A stretch of DNA of 20,336 nt from a virus (taxonomy: Duplodnaviria; Heunggongvirae; Uroviricota; Caudoviricetes). Below are positions 241 to 14,647 of this stretch, piece by piece. The notes beneath the pieces were generated by a model that saw only the letters and a program-made list of their open reading frames with translations, was not told the origin of the DNA and did not search any database. Where the stretch lies: the IMG/VR virus record IMGVR_UViG_2617271085_000008, positions 1-20,336 of that record. The stretch is one strand, 5' to 3'. The position numbers and the translations under genes are program-made. How positions within the stretch are numbered: position 1 is the stretch's first letter; each line of letters begins with the position of its first letter.

Positions 241-576
241 ATGAAGTGGATTGTGATTGATACAGTTATCCAGCCATCATGCGGAATATCTTTTTCAGTC
301 ATATGGAGTAAAATAAAATTAATAATCTGGTATCAATCGGATGCTTTCTTACCTCCTGAAAGTATATTTACACTGACTCACACAGGCATCATGCTCAATA
401 ACAAAGTGCTACCTGTAACCATTTACAACGTAGTACCATTCAATAAAACATTATGGAATTTAATCAAAAACAGCCAGGAATGCCCTACAAATACAGATAA
501 CGTATTGAATGAATGCTTTAATAACCGTTGCACTCTGCAAATATGTCCTTATGGGCTAAAACAACAAAGTCCATAA
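241..576 (+). CDS. Hypothetical protein (111 aa) in AT-rich DNA; may be spurious
   Basis: ORF with AAGGAAA Shine-Dalgarno 5 nt upstream of ATG; very AT-rich and Cys-rich; no recognisable motifs. Confidence 0.2.
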
Positions 577-1522: not shown

Positions 1523-1599
1523 TGGACCGCCATCGGGGACTTGAACCCCGCGCAGCCAGCTTCGAAGGCTGGCGCTCTATCCCGATGAGCTAATGGCGG
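1523..1599 (-). tRNA. tRNA-Arg (anticodon UCG)
   Basis: 77-nt cloverleaf on minus strand: acceptor CCGCCAT/ATGGCGG, D-stem GCTC/GAGC, anticodon stem CCAGC/GCTGG with loop CTTCGAA (UCG), T-arm CGGGG-TTCAAGT-CCCCG, discriminator T; CCA is genome-encoded. Confidence 0.8.
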
Positions 1600-1731: not shown

Positions 1732-2781
1732 TCAAACGATTAAATCCTGAACTTCCCTGACTGTCTGCTCAAAACGTCCGGTCTCCAGTTCAACGCCAAT
1801 CGCACGACGCCCGAGCGCCAGTGCAGCTTTTACCGTTGAACCTGAGCCCATAAAAAAATCTGCAACCAGGTCACCCGGACGACTGCTTGCGCTGATTATC
1901 TGCTGCAGCATTTCTGCCGGTTTTTCGCACGGATGTTTCCCGGGATAGAACTGCACCGGTTTATGTGTCCACACATCCGTGTACGGCACCTGCGCCGTCA
2001 CACCAAAATACCGCCGCAGATGCTTATATTCACTCTGCAGCTCCACATACTGCCGGTTCAGTGACGTATACGTATCCACCAGCTGGTGGTGGGGCTTTTC
2101 CAGTTCACCGCGCTGATGTTTCTCTTCTGCCACCCGGGCAAACAGCGACTGTAATTTCAGATAATCGCTTTCGTTCGGTAGCTGCCACTGACTGGCACTG
2201 AACCAGTGCGACACCATGTTTTTCTTTCCTGTGGCATCTGCAATCTGTTTTGCCGTTATCCCCAGGGCCGCGCGCGCATCACGAAAGTAAGAAATCAGCG
2301 GGGCCATCACATGCTGTTTCAGTGCACTGCCCTTCGCCGCATACCCGGCATCTTTCGGACGATACGGCCCCTGATAATGTTCCGCGAACAGAATGCGCTC
2401 TGTGGCGGGGAAATACGCCCGCAGGCTTTCCTTGTTGCATCCGTTCCAGCGTCCGGACGGCTTCGCCCAGATAATATGGTTCAGCACACTGAAGCGTTCA
2501 CGCATCATGATTTCGATATCAGATGCCAGGCGATGACCACAGAACAGGTAAAGACTTCCGGCAGGTTTCAGCACCCGCCAGAACTGCGCCAGACACTGGT
2601 CCAGCCACTTCAGGTAATCATCGTCGCCCTTCCACTGGTTATCCCAGCCCTCAGGCTTCACTTTAAAGTACGGCGGGTCCGTGACTATCAGGTCAACAGA
2701 ATTTTCGGGTAACGACCGGATAAATTCCAGGCAGTCGGCGTTGATTAACTCACAACTGGATATTTTTACAGTATTAGCCAT
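1732..2781 (-). CDS. DNA methyltransferase, beta-class amino-MTase (N6-adenine or N4-cytosine; DPPY family)
   Basis: 349-aa ORF; motif IV DPPY (LIVTDPPYF) near N-terminus and motif I FFMGSGST near C-terminus, the circularly permuted order typical of beta-class N6A/N4C MTases. Confidence 0.8.
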   Translation of the reverse strand: MANTVKISSCELINADCLEFIRSLPENSVDLIVTDPPYFKVKPEGWDNQWKGDDDYLKWLDQCLAQFWRVLKPAGSLYLFCGHRLASDIEIMMRERFSVLNHIIWAKPSGRWNGCNKESLRAYFPATERILFAEHYQGPYRPKDAGYAAKGSALKQHVMAPLISYFRDARAALGITAKQIADATGKKNMVSHWFSASQWQLPNESDYLKLQSLFARVAEEKHQRGELEKPHHQLVDTYTSLNRQYVELQSEYKHLRRYFGVTAQVPYTDVWTHKPVQFYPGKHPCEKPAEMLQQIISASSRPGDLVADFFMGSGSTVKAALALGRRAIGVELETGRFEQTVREVQDLIV

Positions 2782-2931
2782 AGATCAATAAGCACTTCTC
2801 TGATAGGCTCATACCGCTTTTGCGCAAAGCAGATGGGCCTGAGGTTTGCTTGTGACCCCAACGCATGAGCAGATGGCTGGCAGGTGCCGCTAACACCCAC
2901 CAGCCGCCCATTACCACAAATAAAAAAGCCT

Positions 2932-3129
2932 TCACTGAGGAAGGCGTCTGTAACAACCGAACTGATAATCTGCCAGACCCGCCATAACAAGCTGGGTCAG
3001 TATTAGCTGGCAGCGTTCGCGTGAAAGGTAAGTATTCTGCGCAATTTCCCCGACGGTCGCCGGTTCGGTGACGCTTAATTCATTAAACACCACTCTGGCA
3101 GTTTCGGTCATATCCTGCTGTTTTAGCAT
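2932..3129 (-). CDS. Small hypothetical protein (65 aa), possible DNA-binding protein; start chosen at internal ATG
   Basis: Longer ORF 2932..3366 has no convincing start; internal ATG at 3129 preceded by AAGGGA; product MLKQQDMTETARVVFNELSVTEPATVGEIAQNTYLSRERCQLILTQLV looks helix-turn-helix-like; weak. Confidence 0.3.
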   Translation of the reverse strand: MLKQQDMTETARVVFNELSVTEPATVGEIAQNTYLSRERCQLILTQLVMAGLADYQFGCYRRLPQ

Positions 3130-3252
3130 GTCTTTTTCCCTTTTCTGGTTAACGTGACATACCAATAACTCTTGTCTGAAAAGCCAGCAAGCTGAAAGAC
3201 CGGTATTCGCAACCACCAGCACGTTTAACGTACTGCGCCGTTTTTCGGACAC

Positions 3253-3276
3253 AAAAAACCGCCTGGCGGCGGGTTT
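3253..3276 (-). terminator. Intrinsic terminator-like hairpin (mainly minus-strand, possibly bidirectional)
   Basis: CCGCC-TGGC-GGCGG stem-loop (3259-3272) flanked by AAAAAA (3253-3258) and TTT (3274-3276); on the minus strand the hairpin is followed by TTTTTTGTG. Confidence 0.4.
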
Positions 3277-3321
3277 AAGCTGTGTGGCGTAGTAACCACT
3301 CTTAACACGATATAATATTTT

Positions 3322-3350
3322 TTGCGTACGCGTTATAGTTTTCTTACAAT
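3322..3350 (+). promoter_or_regulatory. Candidate sigma70 promoter for the DUF262-HEPN operon
   Basis: TTGCGT (3322-3327), 17-bp spacer, TACAAT (3345-3350), about 30 nt upstream of the ATG at 3383; a perfect TATAAT also occurs at 3311-3316 without a good -35. Confidence 0.35.
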
Positions 3351-3382
3351 CTATTTCCAACTCCAATTAAAGGAACAGTGAT

Positions 3383-4540
3383 ATGACCACACTCAAAGAA
3401 CTCAAAGAAGAGCTTGCTCAGATTCAAGATGAAAACGCGAAAAATAGAAAAAAAGCTGAAATTGCAGCCTTGGTCACTTCTGCCGACAACGAGATTAGGC
3501 TTGCTCAGAGAAATATTGGATACAACGTACGTGAATGGACCGTTGAATTAATTGTACAAAAGTATGGCAATAATCTTGAAACTGACAAAAACGAACTTTT
3601 TATTCCTGATTATCAACGCGATTACAAATGGGATATCAAAACAGCCTCTCGATTCATCGAAAGTATATTATTAGATTTTCCAATCCCGTACCTCTACATC
3701 TCCGACGTATTTAATGAAGATCCTGAGTTGGATGGTCGTGTAGAAATTATTGACGGTTCACAAAGGATTCGCTCAATTTACTACTTTTGGAACAATCAGT
3801 TTGAATTGAAAGACTTAAAAGAACTCAAAAGTTTAGAGGGCTTCAAATTTTCAGATCTTTTGGCTAGCCGCCAGAGGCGATTTTTAAGGGCATCACTAAG
3901 ATTTATTGAATTGAAAGGTGATGTTGAGGAGCAACATAGAAGAGATTTATTCGAAAGAATAAATTCAGGTGTTAAGAGACTGGAAGCGATGGAGGTTAGA
4001 CATGGTTCAGATGCGGCCACTTCAATTTTCTATAGGGATGTTGTGACTCCTTGCTCAACAAATCCACTTTTCGCTAGTCTAGCTCCATTATCAGACCGGA
4101 AACGTTCGAATGGCGATCATCGTGAGTTAGTTTTGAGATTTTTTGCATACTTAAATGATTTAGAAAATTATAAGGGTTATGTCGCTCCTTTTATTGACAA
4201 TTATCTTAATGTTCAGGCCGAAAGGGTCACACAACAAGATGTAGACAAATTTAAACATGATTTTGAAAGCATGCTTGCTTTTGTAGATGCTCATTTCCCT
4301 ATGGGGTTTAAAAAGACACCAACAAGCAAAACCACCCCCCGTGCTAGATACGAAGCCATAGCAGTGGGAACTGCTCTTGCCTTAAAAGCCAATCCACATC
4401 TACAGGCTCCGGTTATTCCTGTAGGAGACTGGCTGTTTGGGGAGGAATTTGAAACCATAGTTACTGCTGATAGTGCCAACAACACCAGCCAACTCAAAAA
4501 CAGAATATTTTATGTCAAAGATAAATTATTAGGAATGTAA
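3383..4540 (+). CDS. DUF262 / ParB-like (GmrS N-terminal-like) domain protein; candidate defence NTPase/sensor
   Basis: 385-aa ORF with AAAGGAA Shine-Dalgarno; motifs FIPDYQRDYKW and EIIDGSQRIRS match the DUF262 signature (YQR..W and DGxQR); no His-Me/HNH (DUF1524-type) motif seen in the C-terminal half; AT-rich relative to the prophage backbone. Confidence 0.8.
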   Translation: MTTLKELKEELAQIQDENAKNRKKAEIAALVTSADNEIRLAQRNIGYNVREWTVELIVQKYGNNLETDKNELFIPDYQRDYKWDIKTASRFIESILLDFPIPYLYISDVFNEDPELDGRVEIIDGSQRIRSIYYFWNNQFELKDLKELKSLEGFKFSDLLASRQRRFLRASLRFIELKGDVEEQHRRDLFERINSGVKRLEAMEVRHGSDAATSIFYRDVVTPCSTNPLFASLAPLSDRKRSNGDHRELVLRFFAYLNDLENYKGYVAPFIDNYLNVQAERVTQQDVDKFKHDFESMLAFVDAHFPMGFKKTPTSKTTPRARYEAIAVGTALALKANPHLQAPVIPVGDWLFGEEFETIVTADSANNTSQLKNRIFYVKDKLLGM

Positions 4541-4542
4541 CT

Positions 4543-5232
4543 ATGAGTTTGATTGATTTAAGAGATGAATACGAAGAAAGAGCAAGAGATATTATGGAAT
4601 TGCTTTCTCTTGCTTCATCTTTAGAGGCTCAGACTCAGCAGTTAGATCAGCAAACGCATAAAGATGAAATAGAATCAAATACCCTTAGGGTTAACATTTT
4701 AAAATCATCCGTGCACATGATGCTGTACAATCAGGTTGAAAACACTGCCAGAGGATGCATTGAGTCAATTTATGACCATTTGCAAGATAATGAAGTAAAT
4801 TACGCATCACTCAGGGAGAAATTCCAAGTAAATATCTTGCACCGTATCATTTCAGATAATGAATCGGGAAAATCTCTTTATCAAAAAATTGGTTCCGATA
4901 TATCTAAAAGGATCATTTCAGCCTCATTAAACATACGTAAAGAATTCAATGGTAATGTTTGCAAGTCTGTATTGCACAAAATAACACAAGCTTACGGAAT
5001 AACTGTTGCAAACTCACCAGAGTGTAGAAATGGTGTTGACTTAGATTTACTTAAAGATATCAGAAATGAGCTGGCACATGGAAGTACCAGCTTTTCTAAA
5101 AAAGGTCAAATAGACCCTTTAGAAGAAGTCAAATCGAGGTCAGAAAGAATTGATCTATATTTGCGTTTATTAATCAACTCAACAGAAAATTATATTACCT
5201 CTAACGGGTATTTATCCCCTCAACATGTCTGA
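4543..5232 (+). CDS. HEPN-motif protein (putative nuclease/effector partner of the DUF262 protein)
   Basis: 229-aa ORF whose ATG lies 2 nt after the upstream stop (translational coupling), Shine-Dalgarno AGGAA; C-terminal RNELAHG matches the Rx4H HEPN-type motif; assignment is by motif only. Confidence 0.6.
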   Translation: MSLIDLRDEYEERARDIMELLSLASSLEAQTQQLDQQTHKDEIESNTLRVNILKSSVHMMLYNQVENTARGCIESIYDHLQDNEVNYASLREKFQVNILHRIISDNESGKSLYQKIGSDISKRIISASLNIRKEFNGNVCKSVLHKITQAYGITVANSPECRNGVDLDLLKDIRNELAHGSTSFSKKGQIDPLEEVKSRSERIDLYLRLLINSTENYITSNGYLSPQHV

Positions 5233-6241
5233 TAAATGTTTCCCCTATTATCTGACCAATTATAGGGGGAACAGCATTTCCAATCATTGTCCCCAATTTT
5301 TGGAATGAAAAAGGCGTCTCCTTGTCAAGGAATTTATAATCCATTGGAAAGGATTGCAAAATCGCAGCTTCACGCAAAGTTATGGCGCGATTTTGCTCAG
5401 GATGGCCAAATCGTCCATTTCCATATCCATAACACTGGGTAGTTATCGTAGGGCTAGTATCGTCCCAAACCATCCGTCCATAAACGCTTTTATAGGTAGC
5501 ACCTGAATTCTTTTTATGACAGTCTGCTCTAATTTCTTCAGGCCAGTCATCCCACGTACCACCAGGTAAAGAATGCATGATTCGTTTAAGATTGATATCC
5601 ATCAATTTAGGCGAACGATGCAAGGGATCGCTTTCCAGCTTCTCACCTGCCCCTACTTTTGGCAACCTACCAATAGCATCCTTAACAGTAACTTTACGGC
5701 TAACTTTTTTTTGATCAAGGCTGATCGGCCCCAATTGGGAACCAATTAGAATTAATCTACGTCTATTTTGAGGTAAGCCATACTCAGAACATCTTACAAC
5801 GTCGTACCACAAATGATATCCAAGAGTCTTTAATGCACTAACAAACCCTTCAAAAACCTTATGGTTTCTAAGTTGAGGAACATTCTCCATCGTCACAAGC
5901 TCTGGCATGACATCACTTACAAGCCTTTGAAACTCATATAACAAACGCCACTTTGTATCGTCTTTACGGCTATTTGGATTACGATACTTGGAAAACGGTT
6001 GGCAAGGAGCACATCCAGCAAGCAATCTAATATTTCCTTCCTTGAACATAGCAGACACATCGCAGGATTGCAGTTCTGTAACTGACTGATTAATGAACTG
6101 CGTTAAAGGATTATTGCTCTCAATAGCAAAACGGCAGGATTCATCAATATCAATACCATGAGAAACCTCAATCCCGGCTTTTTTTAGCCCAAAAGTTAAG
6201 CCCCCCGCACCACAAAAAATGTCTACTGCCTGAATGTTCAC
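5201..6241 (-). CDS. DNA (cytosine-5)-methyltransferase
   Basis: 346-aa ORF, GTG start with GGAG Shine-Dalgarno; motif I FCGAGG, motif IV GCAPCQPFS (PC catalytic dipeptide), ENV and QNRRR motifs; 3' end overlaps the convergent HEPN gene by 32 bp. Confidence 0.9.
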   Translation of the reverse strand: MNIQAVDIFCGAGGLTFGLKKAGIEVSHGIDIDESCRFAIESNNPLTQFINQSVTELQSCDVSAMFKEGNIRLLAGCAPCQPFSKYRNPNSRKDDTKWRLLYEFQRLVSDVMPELVTMENVPQLRNHKVFEGFVSALKTLGYHLWYDVVRCSEYGLPQNRRRLILIGSQLGPISLDQKKVSRKVTVKDAIGRLPKVGAGEKLESDPLHRSPKLMDINLKRIMHSLPGGTWDDWPEEIRADCHKKNSGATYKSVYGRMVWDDTSPTITTQCYGYGNGRFGHPEQNRAITLREAAILQSFPMDYKFLDKETPFSFQKLGTMIGNAVPPIIGQIIGETFIRHVEGINTR

Positions 6242-6261
6242 AAGATTCTCCGTTACTTTAT

Positions 6262-6300
6262 CCTGGTATTATATACACATAAAAGTTGGGAAAGTAGAAC
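6262..6300 (-). promoter_or_regulatory. Candidate promoter immediately downstream of the Q-like gene (possible late promoter PR'-like, or MTase promoter)
   Basis: Minus-strand TATAAT (complement of 6268-6273) about 30 nt upstream of the MTase GTG start, in the 63-bp gap after the Q-like stop; -35 is weak. Confidence 0.3.
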
Positions 6301-6304
6301 GATT

Positions 6305-6688
6305 TTACATAGAACTTAAGTCATTGTAGTAAATGAAAAATGACAAGCAGCCATCAATAAACCCCATTGCTGTTTGCATCTCTTTCCGTATTGTTCCATC
6401 TGAACATTTCCGTTTTTTAGCAATAGCGCGTAATGAGATACCAATAACAAAGTGAGCAATGATCAACTCATACTCTTCGGGTTTATACTTTCGCAACCGA
6501 GCCACACAACCGTCTATCATGATACCTTCGTCATCATCACACTGGAGACGTGACTTTTTACCGTGTGGTAAAAGCCCCTTGAAGCCTGCTGCTATCGGCT
6601 GCCAGTCCACACCACTGTTATCTGCTGCAGCCCATGCCCCCCAACGTTCAAGAACCATCTGAATATCACGCATCAACTTTCTCCACAA
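6305..6688 (-). CDS. Phage antitermination protein Q-like (short Q family of E. coli prophages)
   Basis: 127-aa ORF with N-terminus MRDIQMVLERWGAWAA, recalled as characteristic of short Q-like antiterminators; position at the end of the replication/nin operon. Confidence 0.7.
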   Translation of the reverse strand: MWRKLMRDIQMVLERWGAWAAADNSGVDWQPIAAGFKGLLPHGKKSRLQCDDDEGIMIDGCVARLRKYKPEEYELIIAHFVIGISLRAIAKKRKCSDGTIRKEMQTAMGFIDGCLSFFIYYNDLSSM

Positions 6689-6690
6689 AA

Positions 6691-7686
6691 TCAGGCCAGC
6701 ACGCCAATTGCCAGCGCACGATCGATAAAACGAAATATCAGCTCCAGTTGGGAACCATACTTCTCTTCAAATGCCACGGTATCCGCATGCAGTTCGTCAT
6801 GGTGTTTTCTGCACAAAGGCAACACAAAAAGGTCATGCGCTTTTGTACCCATTCCACCCTGACCATGACCAATCAGGTGATGAGGATCGTCGGCTGGCTT
6901 ACCACAACATGCACACGGCTGCGTCTTAACCCAGCGCGTGTACTTTTCATTAACCCAGCGGCGACGTTTTGGGCGTAACATAAAAGACTCCGGCGACTCC
7001 GGATCCACTTTCAGCGCCAGCACCTTTTTCGCCTTATCCTGGATGATGCTGGTGGCAGGAACCGAAGGCACAAGGTCACTTTCCCGGGTGACAGACGGCA
7101 CAACAGGCTTCGGTAATCTCAGTGCCTTACGGGCTGCACTTTCCGGTAAGGCATCCGCCAGGTCATTACGAATCAGCCACCAGCACAGTTCCGGCATTGT
7201 CACAACGTGACTGTCATCAAAACCAAGATCACGGCGCACAACAGACAACACCCAGCGGGCACAGTTATCCGTTGCCATTGCTTCCAGCCGTTCCGTGAAC
7301 TGGTCACGGAGAAGATTGTCACAGTGCCAGCACAGACGGATTGCGCCTGGCGCGTGCCGCATTGTGGTCATGTTCTCGCTGTGCCAGTCGGAATGAGGCC
7401 ACTGACAGCCTTTTTCACGAAGTAACCAGCTCTCAAGGCATTCCACGCCACCAGCACGACGGATCACCGCCTCATGGCGGAACACGGCCCGAACGGCAGG
7501 ATCATCCGCCAGCGGTTGTGATGCTGCCGGAACGGCACCACTGGCAAAAGATGAATAACGTTCCGGCTCAGGCTCCAGCAGGACACGCCCCTGCATAAAC
7601 AGGGGCATCAGCTCTGAACCGGGTCTGAACAAGACGATCCCCATACGCGGGGCAATTTCAGGGGTCAGCAGTGCTCTCACGGTCAC
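6691..7686 (-). CDS. Prophage protein with C-terminal Cys/His-rich HNH-like motif (DUF968-like)
   Basis: 331-aa ORF ending 3 nt before the Q-like start; C-terminal CACCGKPADDPHHLIGHG...CRKHHDELH metal-binding-like cluster. Confidence 0.55.
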   Translation of the reverse strand: MTVRALLTPEIAPRMGIVLFRPGSELMPLFMQGRVLLEPEPERYSSFASGAVPAASQPLADDPAVRAVFRHEAVIRRAGGVECLESWLLREKGCQWPHSDWHSENMTTMRHAPGAIRLCWHCDNLLRDQFTERLEAMATDNCARWVLSVVRRDLGFDDSHVVTMPELCWWLIRNDLADALPESAARKALRLPKPVVPSVTRESDLVPSVPATSIIQDKAKKVLALKVDPESPESFMLRPKRRRWVNEKYTRWVKTQPCACCGKPADDPHHLIGHGQGGMGTKAHDLFVLPLCRKHHDELHADTVAFEEKYGSQLELIFRFIDRALAIGVLA

Positions 7687-7732
7687 CTCAGCGAACGGTA
7701 TTGCATGAACGCAGGAGAAAAAAATTCAGCCA

Positions 7733-7990
7733 TCACGCAGTAAACTCCTTCACCAGCGTTTCAAACTGGCTTACCTGTCCTTCCAGTTCCGCCACGCAAT
7801 CCACCAGCTCATCCACCGCCTTTTGTGTGCGGTGTTTTGCCTGCAGCAGATCACGAAGCGCCGGAGTAAGCTGCTTGCGGAGCGTATCTTTTTTCACGCT
7901 CGTTTTTTCCATCTGTTCAGCACAACGAAGCATCTCCTGCGCCTGCCGACGAAGTTGTTCCGGTGAAACAGTGATTGTTCTGTTGTTCAA
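7733..7990 (-). CDS. Hypothetical phage protein (85 aa)
   Basis: ORF in operon orientation whose start overlaps the upstream helicase stop by 4 bp; charged helical product. Confidence 0.55.
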   Translation of the reverse strand: MNNRTITVSPEQLRRQAQEMLRCAEQMEKTSVKKDTLRKQLTPALRDLLQAKHRTQKAVDELVDCVAELEGQVSQFETLVKEFTA

Positions 7991-9387
7991 AATAAACGCT
8001 CCGTTTTACTGCCCGACATGCGGTTATTGCTGTATCTGCGCGGATTGCCCGGCGTCATGGGTGTGGAAAGAACCCGGGCACTCTCCTGGTCCACAGGCAG
8101 AAAATGTCCGTTATGAAAACGCCGGTAAATGGTCCCGAGCGTGCCATTACGCTGTTTCGTGATGTTGATTTCTGCTATGCCTCTGGCCTGAGTTTCCGGG
8201 TTGTATACCTCATCCCTGTAAAGCATCAGAATGATGTCGGCATCCGCCTCGATTTCCCCGGAGTTTTTCAGGTCCGAGTTCATTGGGCGTTTATTGGGTC
8301 TGGATTCCACGCCGCGGGAGAGCTGGCTCAGAGCAATCAGCGGAAAACCGCCGGATTTTGCCAGGCTTTTAAGTCCCTTTGAGATTTCCCCCACCGCAAG
8401 GTCGTGACGCCCCGTGCTGCGGGTTTTAATCAGGCCGAGGTAATCGACCACCACCAGCGCCGTTTCCGGGTGTTTCATCCGGTGGTGCTTCGTGGTTGCA
8501 CATATCTCATCAATGGTCAGGTTTGCCTGGTCCACCATCCAGATATTACGCCCCGTCATTCGTCCCACGCCCTGCGAGAAACGCGCCCAGTCTTCATCTT
8601 CAAAACGGGCAGCAGACTTAAGACGGGATACCGGCATTCCACCGGCAGCAGACACCATACGTTCACCAATCTGGATGTTCGCCATCTCCATGGTGAACAG
8701 AAGCACGCCATGCCCCTGCTCAGTCACCTTGTCGATGATGTCCAGCGCAAGTTCGGTTTTCCCCATCGAAGGACGGGCGGCAATGAATACCAGGTCTCCG
8801 GGCTCCATACCGCCCGTTTTTGCGTCCAGTTCATCAATACCGGTCATCAGCGCCCTGGATTTCTCCAGTCCCTGATTGCGGCATTCAACACGGTCGACCA
8901 CTTCCGGAAGGACATCATCAATGTGAACCGGCTGAATGACGCCCTTTCCGGTCGACAGTGAGGCCATCATGTTCTGCGCATCCTTCAGGGCATCCTCGGC
9001 TGCTTCACAGGTATACGCATCACGTAAATTCTGTAATGCTTCAGTCAGTGTTTTTTCTGCATCGCGCAGTGCGGCATTGCGCCGCAACGCTGCGACATAG
9101 TGCTCCAGTGAAGACTTCACCCAGGTTTTGCGTCCGGTGTCGGTAATCACCGGGGCAAGTTCCGGCATCTCATTGCACAGCAGTACGGGGTCAATGACGC
9201 CGGATATGCGAGCCTGTCTGCAAATCCCCGCGTAAATATCCCGGTACTGACGCACAAAAAATACATCCGCCGGAAGTGTGGCCAGAATATCCATCACTTC
9301 CGGATCGGCCCCACGCAGAAAAAACGCACCGATGACAGCGCCTTCCAGGTCATCGTTACGCCATGCCGGGGTGTTCTGGCTGGTCAT
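7987..9387 (-). CDS. Replicative DNA helicase, DnaB family
   Basis: 466-aa ORF; Walker A AARPSMGKT, Walker B-like VVVDYLGLI, SQLSR motif; overlaps upstream loader gene by 4 bp. Confidence 0.9.
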   Translation of the reverse strand: MTSQNTPAWRNDDLEGAVIGAFFLRGADPEVMDILATLPADVFFVRQYRDIYAGICRQARISGVIDPVLLCNEMPELAPVITDTGRKTWVKSSLEHYVAALRRNAALRDAEKTLTEALQNLRDAYTCEAAEDALKDAQNMMASLSTGKGVIQPVHIDDVLPEVVDRVECRNQGLEKSRALMTGIDELDAKTGGMEPGDLVFIAARPSMGKTELALDIIDKVTEQGHGVLLFTMEMANIQIGERMVSAAGGMPVSRLKSAARFEDEDWARFSQGVGRMTGRNIWMVDQANLTIDEICATTKHHRMKHPETALVVVDYLGLIKTRSTGRHDLAVGEISKGLKSLAKSGGFPLIALSQLSRGVESRPNKRPMNSDLKNSGEIEADADIILMLYRDEVYNPETQARGIAEINITKQRNGTLGTIYRRFHNGHFLPVDQESARVLSTPMTPGNPRRYSNNRMSGSKTERLF

Positions 9388-12948: not shown

Positions 12949-13655
12949 CACCGCTGCCAACCAATAACCTGAAATAACCCCATTTTCGGGTGATACCAGC
13001 GAGTCCCTCGCGGTTCTGCTTCCTCCATAACCCGATAAAAAGCAGCCATAAACGGTTCCACAGCAACAATTGCGCGACGTGACAACAATCCGTCCGGCGT
13101 CATGAACTCATGTGTGTCTGTAGGAATTTGATAGGCGTTCACCAGATTGCGGCATTTATCATCTGACAAACCGGTTTTTGCTTTCAGTTGGCGATATCCG
13201 GCATAGCCCTCACGAATAGTGCCCTTTTTAATTTGCTCGACTGTTTCAGCAACGTGGCTGACTTTTTCTTCCACCTGAGTGATCCGTTTCTGCTGACGAA
13301 CTGCTTCAAGAGCCATCGCGGCAACCATTTCGATTTCGCTCATTGGCTTACGGATCTGTTCTTCCAGTTCGCGCCAGCGATCTACCAGGCGAGCAGTGAA
13401 TTCAGGACAGAGCTGTGCGACGACAATGATGCTGTCGCGCTTACCTTGTTCTCCTTCAAACAGGTAATGCTCATATTGAACTTTAAAACCTAAGTTATTG
13501 ATTCTTTCGGAAACCTCAATTTGAGGAGACCGGACAACGCCACCTTTGGCTAATGTTTCAATAGTGCGTTTCACATTGTCATGACGTTTACCCACCAGCT
13601 CTGCGATCTCAACGCTGGTCATGGATGCTTTGCCGTTAAAAATTGCGGTGTTCAT
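12948..13655 (-). CDS. Phage regulatory protein, Rha family (antirepressor-like)
   Basis: 235-aa ORF; N-terminal MTSVEIAELVGKRHDNVKRTIETL matches the Rha-family signature. Confidence 0.8.
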   Translation of the reverse strand: MNTAIFNGKASMTSVEIAELVGKRHDNVKRTIETLAKGGVVRSPQIEVSERINNLGFKVQYEHYLFEGEQGKRDSIIVVAQLCPEFTARLVDRWRELEEQIRKPMSEIEMVAAMALEAVRQQKRITQVEEKVSHVAETVEQIKKGTIREGYAGYRQLKAKTGLSDDKCRNLVNAYQIPTDTHEFMTPDGLLSRRAIVAVEPFMAAFYRVMEEAEPRGTRWYHPKMGLFQVIGWQR

Positions 13656-13879
13656 TGTTGGTCTCCTGTGGGCTTGTCATCTTCTGTATTCGCTAGACTT
13701 GGGTGTGTATATGGAATGCTCGGATCCAGATGACAAAGAATGGCAACATCCTCCGGAACACCTCGCGTTTTCCACTTTCCAACACCTTGACTGCCACGAG
13801 GCCTTCCTTTCTTTGGGAACCTGCGACCAATAGCGGCATTGGTTTTAAATTGAATTTTTAATATTTCATAAAGGGTCAT
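13652..13879 (-). CDS. Hypothetical small basic protein at the Cro-equivalent position
   Basis: 75-aa ORF, first gene of the minus-strand operon, divergent from the CI-like gene; 4-bp overlap with the Rha gene; no clear HTH recognised. Confidence 0.4.
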   Translation of the reverse strand: MTLYEILKIQFKTNAAIGRRFPKKGRPRGSQGVGKWKTRGVPEDVAILCHLDPSIPYTHPSLANTEDDKPTGDQQ

Positions 13880-13889
13880 TCTTTAGTCT

Positions 13890-13970
13890 CACACCAGATA
13901 CTTTGTTATCCAACGATGTTAACCACAGGAATCCAAAGTATCAAGAAATTCTGTTACTTTAGTATCAACA
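13890..13970. promoter_or_regulatory. Divergent promoter/operator region (OR-like) with repeated GTATCA-core motifs
   Basis: AGATACTTTG (13896-13905, inverted), CCAAAGTATCAAG (13933-13945) and TTTAGTATCAAC (13958-13969) between the divergent CI-like and Cro-position genes. Confidence 0.4.
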
Positions 13971-13990
13971 GCCATGAGAGGAGAAGAAAA

Positions 13991-14647
13991 ATGAAGTCTT
14001 TAGGTGAACGTCTCATCAACGCACGGCAAAAAGCTGGGTTAACACAAGATGCGTTGGCTAAAAAAGCTGGGATCACCAGAGTTGCAATCAGTAAAGCCGA
14101 GCAAGGCCTTACAAAAAGTTTCAACGGTGACACCCTTTTTAAAGTTGCAGCTGCACTGCGGTGTTCACCGCAGTGGCTTCAGAACGGAGATGAAAAAGAT
14201 AAGCATTGGGAAAATAATGTTAAGAGCTGCCCACAGAGAGACACAGCACACTCTTACCCTGTAATTAACTGGGTTCAGGCAGGATTATTCGCAACTTCTG
14301 GTGATGACTACAACATGTATGATCAGGATAATTGGAGGCATTCTGTAAAATACGCTGGTGAGAGGGGGTTCTGGCTGGAAGTGCACGGAGACTCAATGAC
14401 TTCGCCCGTAGGAATAACATTTCCTGAAGGAATGTCGATCCTTGTCAACCCAGATAAAGAAGTTTTTTCAGGGTGTTACGTCATCGCCAGAAAAAAATCC
14501 ACCAATGAAGCAACATTCAAAAAATATATTTCTGACATGGGAAAGGCGTTTCTAAAGCCCCTTAATCCACAATATCCAATCATAGAAATGGACAATGATT
14601 GCGAAATAGTAGGTGTTGTGGTTGATGCCAGGTGGGATATTTTCTGA
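13991..14647 (+). CDS. CI-like prophage repressor (HTH_XRE + S24 LexA-like peptidase)
   Basis: Start at ATG 13991 with AGAGGAGAAG Shine-Dalgarno (track ORF starts at 13916); N-terminal HTH GLTQDALAKKAGITRVAISKAEQG; C-terminal GDSM catalytic Ser motif with downstream Lys. Confidence 0.85.
   Translation: MKSLGERLINARQKAGLTQDALAKKAGITRVAISKAEQGLTKSFNGDTLFKVAAALRCSPQWLQNGDEKDKHWENNVKSCPQRDTAHSYPVINWVQAGLFATSGDDYNMYDQDNWRHSVKYAGERGFWLEVHGDSMTSPVGITFPEGMSILVNPDKEVFSGCYVIARKKSTNEATFKKYISDMGKAFLKPLNPQYPIIEMDNDCEIVGVVVDARWDIF

Follow-up and report, generated by a model that had tools for sequence, protein, structure and literature searches.

A restriction-modification-like gene trio in an Escherichia coli lambdoid prophage probably lies between the antiterminator gene Q and a putative late promoter

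The DNA analysed here, referred to as the window, is a stretch of 20,336 nucleotides of a tailed virus (Caudoviricetes; IMG/VR record IMGVR_UViG_2617271085_000008, positions 1 to 20,336) and spans the junction between the early-right and late regions of an Escherichia coli lambdoid prophage. Beside its antiterminator gene, Q, the window carries three genes encoding a C5 cytosine DNA methyltransferase (C5-MTase), a DUF262 protein and a HEPN protein, which are predicted to constitute a restriction-modification-like defence module. Comparison with related prophages suggests, with a probability that we put at about 0.68, that this trio is lodged in a cargo slot separating Q from its cognate late-promoter unit, and that Q-driven late transcription starts past the trio. 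An earlier reading of the same sequence (hereafter, the original prediction) had instead placed the DUF262 and HEPN genes antisense to Q-dependent late transcription and had treated the methyltransferases on both sides of them as late genes.

Results

A putative late-promoter element past the defence genes

Q and the sequence that we conclude to be its putative cognate unit, consisting of Q-binding element (QBE), late promoter pR' and terminator tR', lie on either side of the trio. Their features, followed by the next terminator in the same direction, are:

6305-6673 (to 6688 if counted from an upstream TTG), minus strand: antiterminator Q of the Q21/933W family, window-type specificity class (PF06530, 1.8e-48)
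3322-3334, minus strand: AACGCGTACGCAA, containing the 8-bp palindrome GCGTACGC, putative QBE of pR'; specific to the Q class, with a single exact copy in the window
3307-3312, minus strand: TATCGT, best candidate -10 of pR'; positions 2 (A) and 6 (T) are kept in all four Q classes
3295-3305, minus strand: TTAAGAGTGGT, putative start and sigma-dependent pause element (SDPE), invariant in all Q classes (consensus of 93 distinct elements)
3253-3272, minus strand: intrinsic terminator CCGCC-GCCA-GGCGG followed by UUUUUU, putative tR' (terminator scan; RNA fold -18.5 kcal/mol, z -2.25)
2928-2945, minus strand: second intrinsic terminator, a 6-bp stem followed by TTTTTTATTT, between a small open reading frame (ORF) and the gene for an amino-methyltransferase with a DPPY motif (DPPY MTase) (terminator scan)

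The candidate -10 has the form TAnnnT, except that 14 of 33 class B elements have CAGTAT (classes are defined below), with the remaining positions variable, and the putative tR' ends ~50 nt past the putative pR' start. The block TAnnnT-G-TTAAGAGTGGTTAC...CACACAGCTTAAACCC plus terminator is common to all relatives examined, namely the cargo-free phage L002 (PPyecE_EH1910), phiP27, the Shiga toxin (Stx) phages of the Stx1 and Stx2 types, 434, PA-2 and DLP12.

The comparison that ties this element to Q was drawn from a survey of ~220 viral contigs encoding a Q of the PF06530-type family, 204 loci of which entered the pairing of Q class with palindrome; class A denotes the window type and class B the L002 type. 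Window-type Q is accompanied by AACGCGTACGCAA in all 74 loci having the element, L002-type Q by the palindrome CGCGGTCCGCA (50/50 loci), P27-type Q by TTGCGGAATTCCAA (4/4) and QuuD-type Q by TTTACGTACGTAA (76/76), and no mixed combination of Q class and palindrome occurs among the 204 loci. The class palindrome sits at -33 to -16 relative to the invariant core. Class A comprises 51 distinct Q sequences and class B 24.

Class A elements are located 655-3781 bp past the Q stop codon, behind more than 35 cargo architectures. Within the 130 nt that follow the Q stop, the best shared 9-mer is present in 8 of 36 cargo variants, and 9-mers of the element are present in 35-36 of 36. Antisense cargo typically ends between -29 and +52 nt from the Q stop, too close for a promoter to fit there, and a sequence search found no second copy of the palindrome or of TTAAGAGTGGT near Q, the element being single in the window. 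Compared with L002, the window shows homology only at 1754-3307 and 6566-8000; the exchanged segment, from 6566 to 3307, thus covers two-thirds of Q (its C-terminal part) together with the cargo and palindrome, through the -10-like hexamer, and these boundaries suggest that the DNA-binding part of Q, the cargo and the palindrome move as one cassette. In L002 itself the element begins ~10 nt past the Q stop, with the TAnnnT block at ~40 nt and the terminator within ~90 nt, so that this block, directly after Q, is the only possible place for a late promoter in that phage. The class B palindrome, which the cargo promoter uses at only one of nine junctions, is retained even in cargo-free phages, and this argues that the primary role of the palindrome is with Q.

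From these comparisons we conclude that 3334-3253 is the putative cognate QBE/pR'/tR' of Q and that the late promoter is downstream of the defence genes. With a late start near 3300, Q-driven transcription would run away from the DUF262 and HEPN genes and never cross 3383-5232. The antisense relationship between this pair and Q-dependent late transcription, on which the original prediction was built, is therefore not borne out, given that the putative pR' unit lies past the pair and that conservation resides in the element and not in the sequence flanking Q.

At the other end of the slot, DNA homology among Q genes ends near 6351 (blastn), which puts the left recombination junction of the cargo cassettes within the Q coding sequence. 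In an alignment that included six Q proteins, the last 10-15 residues past the conserved GFIDG, at the 3' end of the gene (6305-6350), vary with the type of cargo. G+C content is 38% in the cargo segment (3308-6350) as against ~53-55% in the flanking phage genes.

The layout has a curated counterpart in phage 21, to whose Q21 structures (6jnx, 6p18) the Q protein of the window is distantly matched. The phage 21 record (OL657228) annotates a -35, a QBE in the spacer, a -10, a start, the SDPE TAAGCTG at +2 and a terminator at +3 to +50, and cites Yin et al. (2019; PMID 31455742) for the QBE. This cassette (see also Shi et al., 2019) shares with the putative one of the window the Pfam family of Q, the arrangement of the elements and a TAAG -10-like motif at the start; it differs in following Q directly, without cargo, and in having the consensus -35 TTGACA. 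The putative start and pause element TTAAGAGTGGT resembles both the phage 21 SDPE TAAGCTG and lambda AACGATGGG.

Several further observations concern the same region. In lambda, the sequence AACGATGGGTTAATTCG (L259, 789-805), ~80 nt past the Q stop, resembles AAGAGTGGTTACTACG of the window (3303-3288; AAGAGTGGTTACTTCG in most relatives). We take AACGATGGGTTAATTCG to be the initial transcribed region of lambda pR' with its SDPE, the record being unannotated there. Lambda Q and window Q belong to unrelated families. The putative pR' leader contains a small hairpin, GUGGU-N6-GCCAC, located after the invariant core and before the terminator (3283-3299, minus strand). Rfam returned no family on this leader, its only matches in the window being STnc100 and tRNAs, and STnc100 was considered as a Q-proximal RNA and rejected, as it has that position in none of the related loci. 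The 258-nt pR'-tR' unit of the Sakai phages described in the StxS paper was likewise set aside as a model, because it belongs to a different Q type and is not transferable.

A predicted self-contained defence module with its probable cognate methyltransferase

The three genes of the trio and the promoter signals read from the sequence beside them are:

5201-6241, minus strand: C5-MTase (PF00145, 9.5e-54), with the FxGxG, PCQ and ENV motifs intact
4543-5232, plus strand: HEPN protein of the MAE_28990 family, presumed effector (PF18737, 3.8e-16; PF18735, 6.7e-08)
3383-4540, plus strand: DUF262/ParB-like NTPase (GmrSD N-terminal domain) of 385 aa (PF03235, 1.1e-25)
6268-6273, minus strand: TATAAT, candidate -10 of the C5-MTase gene, in the 63-nt spacer between Q and the MTase gene, with no good -35
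3322-3350, plus strand: candidate promoter of the DUF262 and HEPN genes, with the -35 TTGCGT (3322-3327), a 17-nt spacer and the -10 TACAAT (3345-3350)

The HEPN protein has an intact Rx4H motif (RNELAH, residues 174-179), and the translation of the DUF262 gene contains DGSQR, a variant of the DGQQR motif. The DUF262 protein matches the PADLOC models NsnA (5.6e-46) and PD-T4-2_A (4.3e-27); a Pfam scan found no DUF1524 nuclease domain in it or in its neighbours, and sequence searches of the PDB with the DUF262 and HEPN proteins gave no useful match. The C5-MTase and HEPN genes are convergent and overlap by 32 nt.

Homologues of the DUF262 gene traced in genomes, together with a scan of viral contigs, yielded 38 trio loci with DUF262 identities down to 53%. 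The order DUF262 (plus), HEPN (plus), C5-MTase (minus) is found in 37 of them, and the contig of the 38th (L290) ends before the position of the MTase gene. The trio occurs in Escherichia, Klebsiella and Yersinia (in the latter two in prophages), prophages of the Enterobacter type, Photobacterium, Pseudomonas and other viral contigs; at least 107 of 5426 complete E. coli genomes carry it. Outside phages, at 53-61% identity, it is found on the chromosome of Photobacterium damselae, flanked by an aminotransferase gene and fis/dusB/prmA, and in an island adjoining McrBC in Pseudomonas. The Q-linked copies have all their junctions in common; L254, a seemingly independent case, also has Q beside the MTase gene. 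In L284 and L286-L289, where the right flank is present (DUF262 identity is 53-56% across L284-L290), the trio is not beside Q and stands where the flanking genes switch orientation; these copies probably arose by separate insertion at other places in phage genomes.

The three genes are adjacent and conserved across taxa, as expected of the restriction-modification-like system predicted for them, and we regard DUF262, HEPN and C5-MTase as one self-contained module of this predicted function. Conservation of the C5-MTase in the same convergent arrangement, including at non-phage sites, argues that it is the cognate modification partner of DUF262-HEPN and not a phage late gene. The geometry of the original prediction, with two MTase genes in the late orientation flanking the pair, is thus retained, while its meaning is altered: the C5-MTase would belong with the defence genes, and the DPPY MTase on the other side would be the late gene.

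Candidate promoters carried by the trio

In seven of the eight trio copies examined, including the non-phage copy of Photobacterium, the MTase start is preceded at ~25-35 nt by a -10 of the TATAAT type; the exception among the eight is the Pseudomonas copy (L258), which has no such -10 before the MTase. On the opposite strand, TTGCGT recurs at 29 of 33 distinct class A cargo junctions, with a TAnnnT-type hexamer 16-18 nt on and the first cargo gene after it, and TACAAT precedes DUF262 both in phage copies and in that of Photobacterium. The TTGCGT -35 lies inside the phage palindrome element, being the reverse complement of part of it. A palindrome-sharing divergent cargo promoter was considered as a rule for all classes and rejected, because the arrangement seen at 29/33 class A junctions is found at only one of nine in class B. 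A generic promoter scan did not flag the candidate at 3322-3350.

On this comparative evidence the trio should carry its own promoters, the TATAAT of the C5-MTase and the TACAAT before DUF262. The class A junctions and the Photobacterium copy lend support to the candidate promoter at 3322-3350 that the original prediction had proposed, and make the expression of DUF262-HEPN in the lysogen, also proposed there, probable. The same reasoning cuts the other way for the C5-MTase. Promoters of their own, active in the lysogen, would speak against the view that both MTases are late genes, and the conserved TATAAT points to one for the C5-MTase, which moreover lies upstream of the putative pR' within a trio conserved outside phages; as a late gene, only the DPPY MTase, behind two terminators in the late unit, is upheld.

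The putative late unit and the surrounding genes

Beyond the putative tR', and in the same direction, the window encodes:

2932-3129, minus strand: small ORF of 65 aa, the first gene past the putative tR', with annotated homologues and conserved in Stx phages and phiP27
1732-2781, minus strand: DPPY MTase, a beta-class N6/N4 amino-MTase of 349 aa (PF01555, 2.3e-44), with DPPY at residue 35 and FMGSG at 310
1607-1682 and 1523-1599, minus strand: two phage tRNA genes (anticodon CAT and Arg-TCG, respectively; ARAGORN, Rfam), in the position that tRNA genes have upstream of stx in Stx phages

The start of the small ORF follows its homologues, which begin at the ATG at 3129, the mechanical ORF extending to 3366; its match to a TrmB-like helix-turn-helix (HTH) domain is weak (PF01978, 0.0026, under the Pfam cut-off). 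The DPPY MTase shares 95% identity with the MTase of phage 1720a-02 and 96% with a methylase of an Stx2a phage. According to Murray et al. (PMC5778455), the 1720a-02 enzyme is very similar to M.EcoGII, a prophage-borne non-specific adenine MTase, and M.EcoGI/GII are not expressed in the lysogen. The window protein probably belongs to the M.EcoGI/GII family, to which it is likened through the 1720a-02 MTase, and with which it shares the length of 349 aa and the beta-class order of motifs (DPPY, then FxGxG). Taking the identity of pR' from the comparison above, the small ORF, the DPPY MTase and the tRNAs fall within the Q-dependent late unit and the C5-MTase falls outside it, so that the DPPY MTase should be the sole MTase in the putative unit. 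Its place behind tR' and the second terminator would explain the silence of M.EcoGI/GII in the lysogen. The late modification of progeny DNA envisaged by the original prediction fits this enzyme, given its position behind tR', and the DPPY MTase could carry it out. In L001 (NZ_AP022298, 2032-3082), the cargo region of which is 100% identical, the gene is annotated as frameshifted and is accompanied by three tRNAs; the ORF of the window is intact, with two tRNAs.

The direction of early-right and late transcription follows from the arrangement of two genes:

13916-14647, plus strand: cI-like repressor (HTH and S24 peptidase domain matches)
13652-13879, minus strand: cro-like gene, divergent from the repressor gene

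This arrangement identifies the minus strand as the early-right and late direction. Beyond the cro-like gene on that strand follow Rha/Ash-like genes, a DnaC-like loader, DnaB (7987-9387), DUF968 (6691-7686) and Q. The backbone is like that of Stx phages, without stx genes: Stx phages with the same backbone have the order Q, small ORF, 'DNA methylase', tRNAs and stx, and the window has the same order minus stx. Hundreds of lambdoid and Stx-converting phages match it, and the segment 2700-6750 is 100% identical to a prophage of E. coli BEC1-S17-ESBL-09. Profile matches, ARAGORN and ORF positions confirmed the genes, strands, families and coordinates of the original prediction throughout.

Just downstream of the tRNAs, where Stx phages carry stx, the minus strand contains the STnc100 small RNA family in three copies, two full and one partial (Rfam; 602-790, 855-1030 and 1066-1259, with 138, 132.5 and 30 bits), each with a strong intrinsic terminator at its end (632-611, 881-862 and 1094-1075); a near-identical genome has one copy only. 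An ORF at 241-576 (plus strand, G+C 0.32), opposite in strand to the late genes, is annotated as the anti-adapter IraM in a near-identical prophage and is likely another cargo gene expressed in the lysogen.

Discussion

Alternative readings of the locus

The arrangement assumed by the original prediction, with pR' directly downstream of Q, both MTases late and DUF262-HEPN silenced by late antisense transcription, is the one known from lambda, phage 21, 933W and the Stx phages of Sakai, in all of which pR' directly follows Q. The spacer between Q and the MTase gene could even seem to accommodate it, for it holds a perfect TATAAT (6273-6268) followed by a -10-like TAAAGT, with no terminator before the C5-MTase. 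We nonetheless consider it quite improbable. The sequence past Q is unconserved among phages with the same Q, blastn homology having ended inside the gene; in most relatives the antisense cargo comes so close to the Q stop that no promoter space remains; the palindrome and TTAAGAGTGGT are absent from this place; and the TATAAT travels with the MTase to non-phage contexts and so belongs to the module. A constitutive pR' beside Q would, furthermore, give a 3-kb antisense RNA over the defence genes in every lysogen. It is improbable, too, that the conserved element at 3334-3253 is only a terminator and a regulatory site of the cargo promoter, such as a CRP site, with its pairing to Q due to linkage and the real site of Q elsewhere. 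The class A palindrome does supply the -35 of the cargo promoter, but this use is rare in class B, where the palindrome is conserved all the same, and cargo-free class B phages keep the palindrome, -10 and terminator directly after Q, where their late promoter has to be. The element layout also matches the curated pR' annotation of phage 21, and in 434, PA-2 and DLP12 a promoter-like element with a terminator directly before the holin gene is in the expected position of pR'-tR'. As to the trio itself, DUF262 is best known from GmrSD, BrxU and SspE, sensors of modified DNA, and phages often carry orphan MTases; the pair might accordingly be taken for a modification-dependent Type IV system of the GmrSD kind beside an unrelated anti-restriction MTase. 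This we hold to be very improbable, considering that the DUF1524/HNH domain is missing, that the C5-MTase adjoins the pair in 37/38 loci, including non-phage ones at 53-61% identity, which is the signature of a cognate partner, and that an active C5-MTase beside an effector dependent on 5-methylcytosine would turn that effector against its own genome.

The placement of the cognate late promoter past the trio has to be weighed against a number of observations that tell against it or against the defence role of the cargo. The PA-2 record (J02580) annotates a CRP site over AGTGGTTACTTCGTCACACAG, on the stretch matching 3283-3299 and covering part of the invariant sequence. On the pR' strand the -35 is poor (TAACGC), and the generic scan did not call pR'; it is ambiguous in which register the -10, start and pause element should be read, comparison with lambda and phage 21 allowing at least two alternative hexamers and three registers. 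The QBE of phage 21 is a direct repeat of TGAGCA, as opposed to a palindrome in the window. Classes C and D are each represented by one distinct Q sequence and add little independent weight, and the strict pairing of Q and palindrome could partly reflect linkage, with Q and the element serving as recombination arms. The region may carry other signals, as exemplified by DLP12 (L008, ~5340-5375), in which TGAACT, 16 nt, TCACT and then an A 6 nt on fit a promoter of the sigmaE type ~350 nt upstream of the palindrome and terminator element. With respect to the cargo, the HEPN protein gave no PADLOC match to PD-T4-2_B at E<=0.01, and the cargo is only predicted to be active in defence, as are the MTase to have a target there and HEPN to act as the effector.

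A DLP12 reporter spanning -121 to +650 (PMC7918800) was considered as evidence on pR' and set aside; its primer-mapped +1 (L008, ~5375) fits the sigmaE-type promoter, and it neither supports nor refutes pR'.

Proposed wiring of the locus

If the late-promoter unit lies past the trio, the locus may be wired as follows. In the lysogen, three promoters would be active, those of the C5-MTase (6273-6268) and of DUF262-HEPN (3322-3350) and pR', the last yielding only a terminated RNA of ~50 nt. The C5-MTase would mark the DNA of the cell, the DUF262 ParB-like NTPase would presumably sense the status of the DNA and HEPN would act as the presumed nuclease effector. Upon induction, early transcription from pR would proceed through Q into the C5-MTase in the sense direction, a continuation that is to be expected since the 63 nt between the two genes contain no terminator, and, if unstopped, it would then enter HEPN and DUF262 in antisense. 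Q would load at the element past the trio and read through tR' and the second terminator (2945-2928), and the modified transcription would reach the small ORF, the DPPY MTase and the tRNAs, and then the lysis and late genes. After induction, the pair could thus be crossed in antisense only by transcription from the C5-MTase promoter or by early read-through past Q. In a terminator scan, the minus strand inside the pair showed only weak hairpins, at 5092-5069 and 3471-3452.

The putative pR' and the DUF262-HEPN promoter are divergent and overlap, with putative starts ~57 bp apart. It is conceivable, although we regard it as unlikely, that the class A palindrome GCGTACGC is both the loading site of Q and the -35 of the cargo promoter, such that binding of Q would activate the late genes and block the cargo promoter. 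Were this so, the phage would possess a built-in switch, independent of the identity of the cargo, that shields it from its own defence genes after induction, and the converging early transcription from Q and the lysogenic cargo transcripts that enter Q in antisense, in the manner of paQ, would be secondary layers of control. If the palindrome is the Q site, exchanging GCGTACGC for GCGGTCCGC should switch the specificity of Q.

Relation to known systems

The arrangement of the trio is, as far as comparison of the loci goes, one case of a general cargo slot, the classical example of which is nmpC/lc of DLP12, PA-2 and 434. In these phages, too, a lysogen-expressed gene is directed against Q and lies between a PF06530 Q (QuuD) and the TAnnnT-G-TTAAGAGTGGTTAC-terminator element, which is found past the antisense porin gene, ~120-170 nt upstream of the holin gene. 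That slot differs in its porin cargo, a case of lysogenic conversion, and in the class of Q and the palindrome (TTTACGTACGTAAA); the cargo of the window differs in including one sense gene, the C5-MTase. In nearly all of the architectures surveyed, the cargo is oriented antisense to Q, the exceptions being the C5-MTase, a GIY-YIG gene in phiP27 and a few sense ORFs that are short or confined to a single locus. Representative cargo proteins match the PADLOC candidates PDC-S42, PDC-M53A, PDC-S33 and PDC-S20 (KAP/PifA-like).

The pairing of DUF262 with HEPN, the PD-T4-2_A match and the shared PF18735 liken the module to the two-gene anti-phage system PD-T4-2 (Vassallo et al., 2022); the HEPN protein of the window, however, has PF18737 as its best match and none to PD-T4-2_B at E<=0.01, and the C5-MTase is an additional, obligate partner, so that the trio does not qualify as PD-T4-2. 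Menshen, which consists of NsnA (DUF262), the ATPase NsnB and the effector NsnC (PMC12065111), was rejected in spite of the NsnA match, as the neighbours are HEPN and C5-MTase and there is no ATPase gene, and a Type IV identity of the GmrSD/BrxU kind was rejected because PF03235 was found without DUF1524 in the protein or its neighbours. The same three genes were predicted to form a restriction-modification-like operon, with HEPN (MAE_28990), a ParB nuclease and a DNA methylase, in the computational work of Anantharaman et al. (2013), in the passages of which that deal with this operon neither the prophage site nor the convergent overlap appears. Tha/Ith of Staphylococcus aureus phage 80alpha (Rostol et al., 2024) is a further parallel, in that a HEPN-type prophage defence is tied to the lysis-lysogeny decision through overlapping antisense units. 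It differs in its inhibitor protein, Ith, in its location in the cI operon and in a regulation demonstrated by RNA-seq and mutants, whereas in the window antisense control is only possible and self-protection would come from methylation.

Accordingly, the type of module, predicted in 2013, the DUF262 and HEPN pairing of PD-T4-2, the slot of PA-2 and DLP12 and the antisense-coupled defence of Tha/Ith are already known. What may be new, judging from the loci compared, is the splitting of Q and its promoter by exchangeable antisense cargo, the strict pairing of Q with a palindrome and the placement of the class A cargo promoter on a putative Q site.

Implications

The reading proposed here corrects the wiring of the locus, in that the putative site of action of Q would be up to ~3.8 kb away from the Q gene, with lysogen-expressed cargo in between. 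It also provides a rule for the search of defence candidates in prophages of E. coli and related genera, namely to look between a PF06530 Q and the succession of palindrome, TAnnnT, TTAAGAGTGGT and terminator. For MTases of the M.EcoGII type, location behind tR' and the second terminator is the likely reason for their lysogen silence. The methylase-DUF262-HEPN module may serve as a tractable system for the control of a ParB-like NTPase and a HEPN nuclease by cytosine methylation. Finally, in Stx phages of the same backbone the same late unit would drive expression of the toxin, which would make the putative promoter and QBE described here relevant to the regulation of toxin production.

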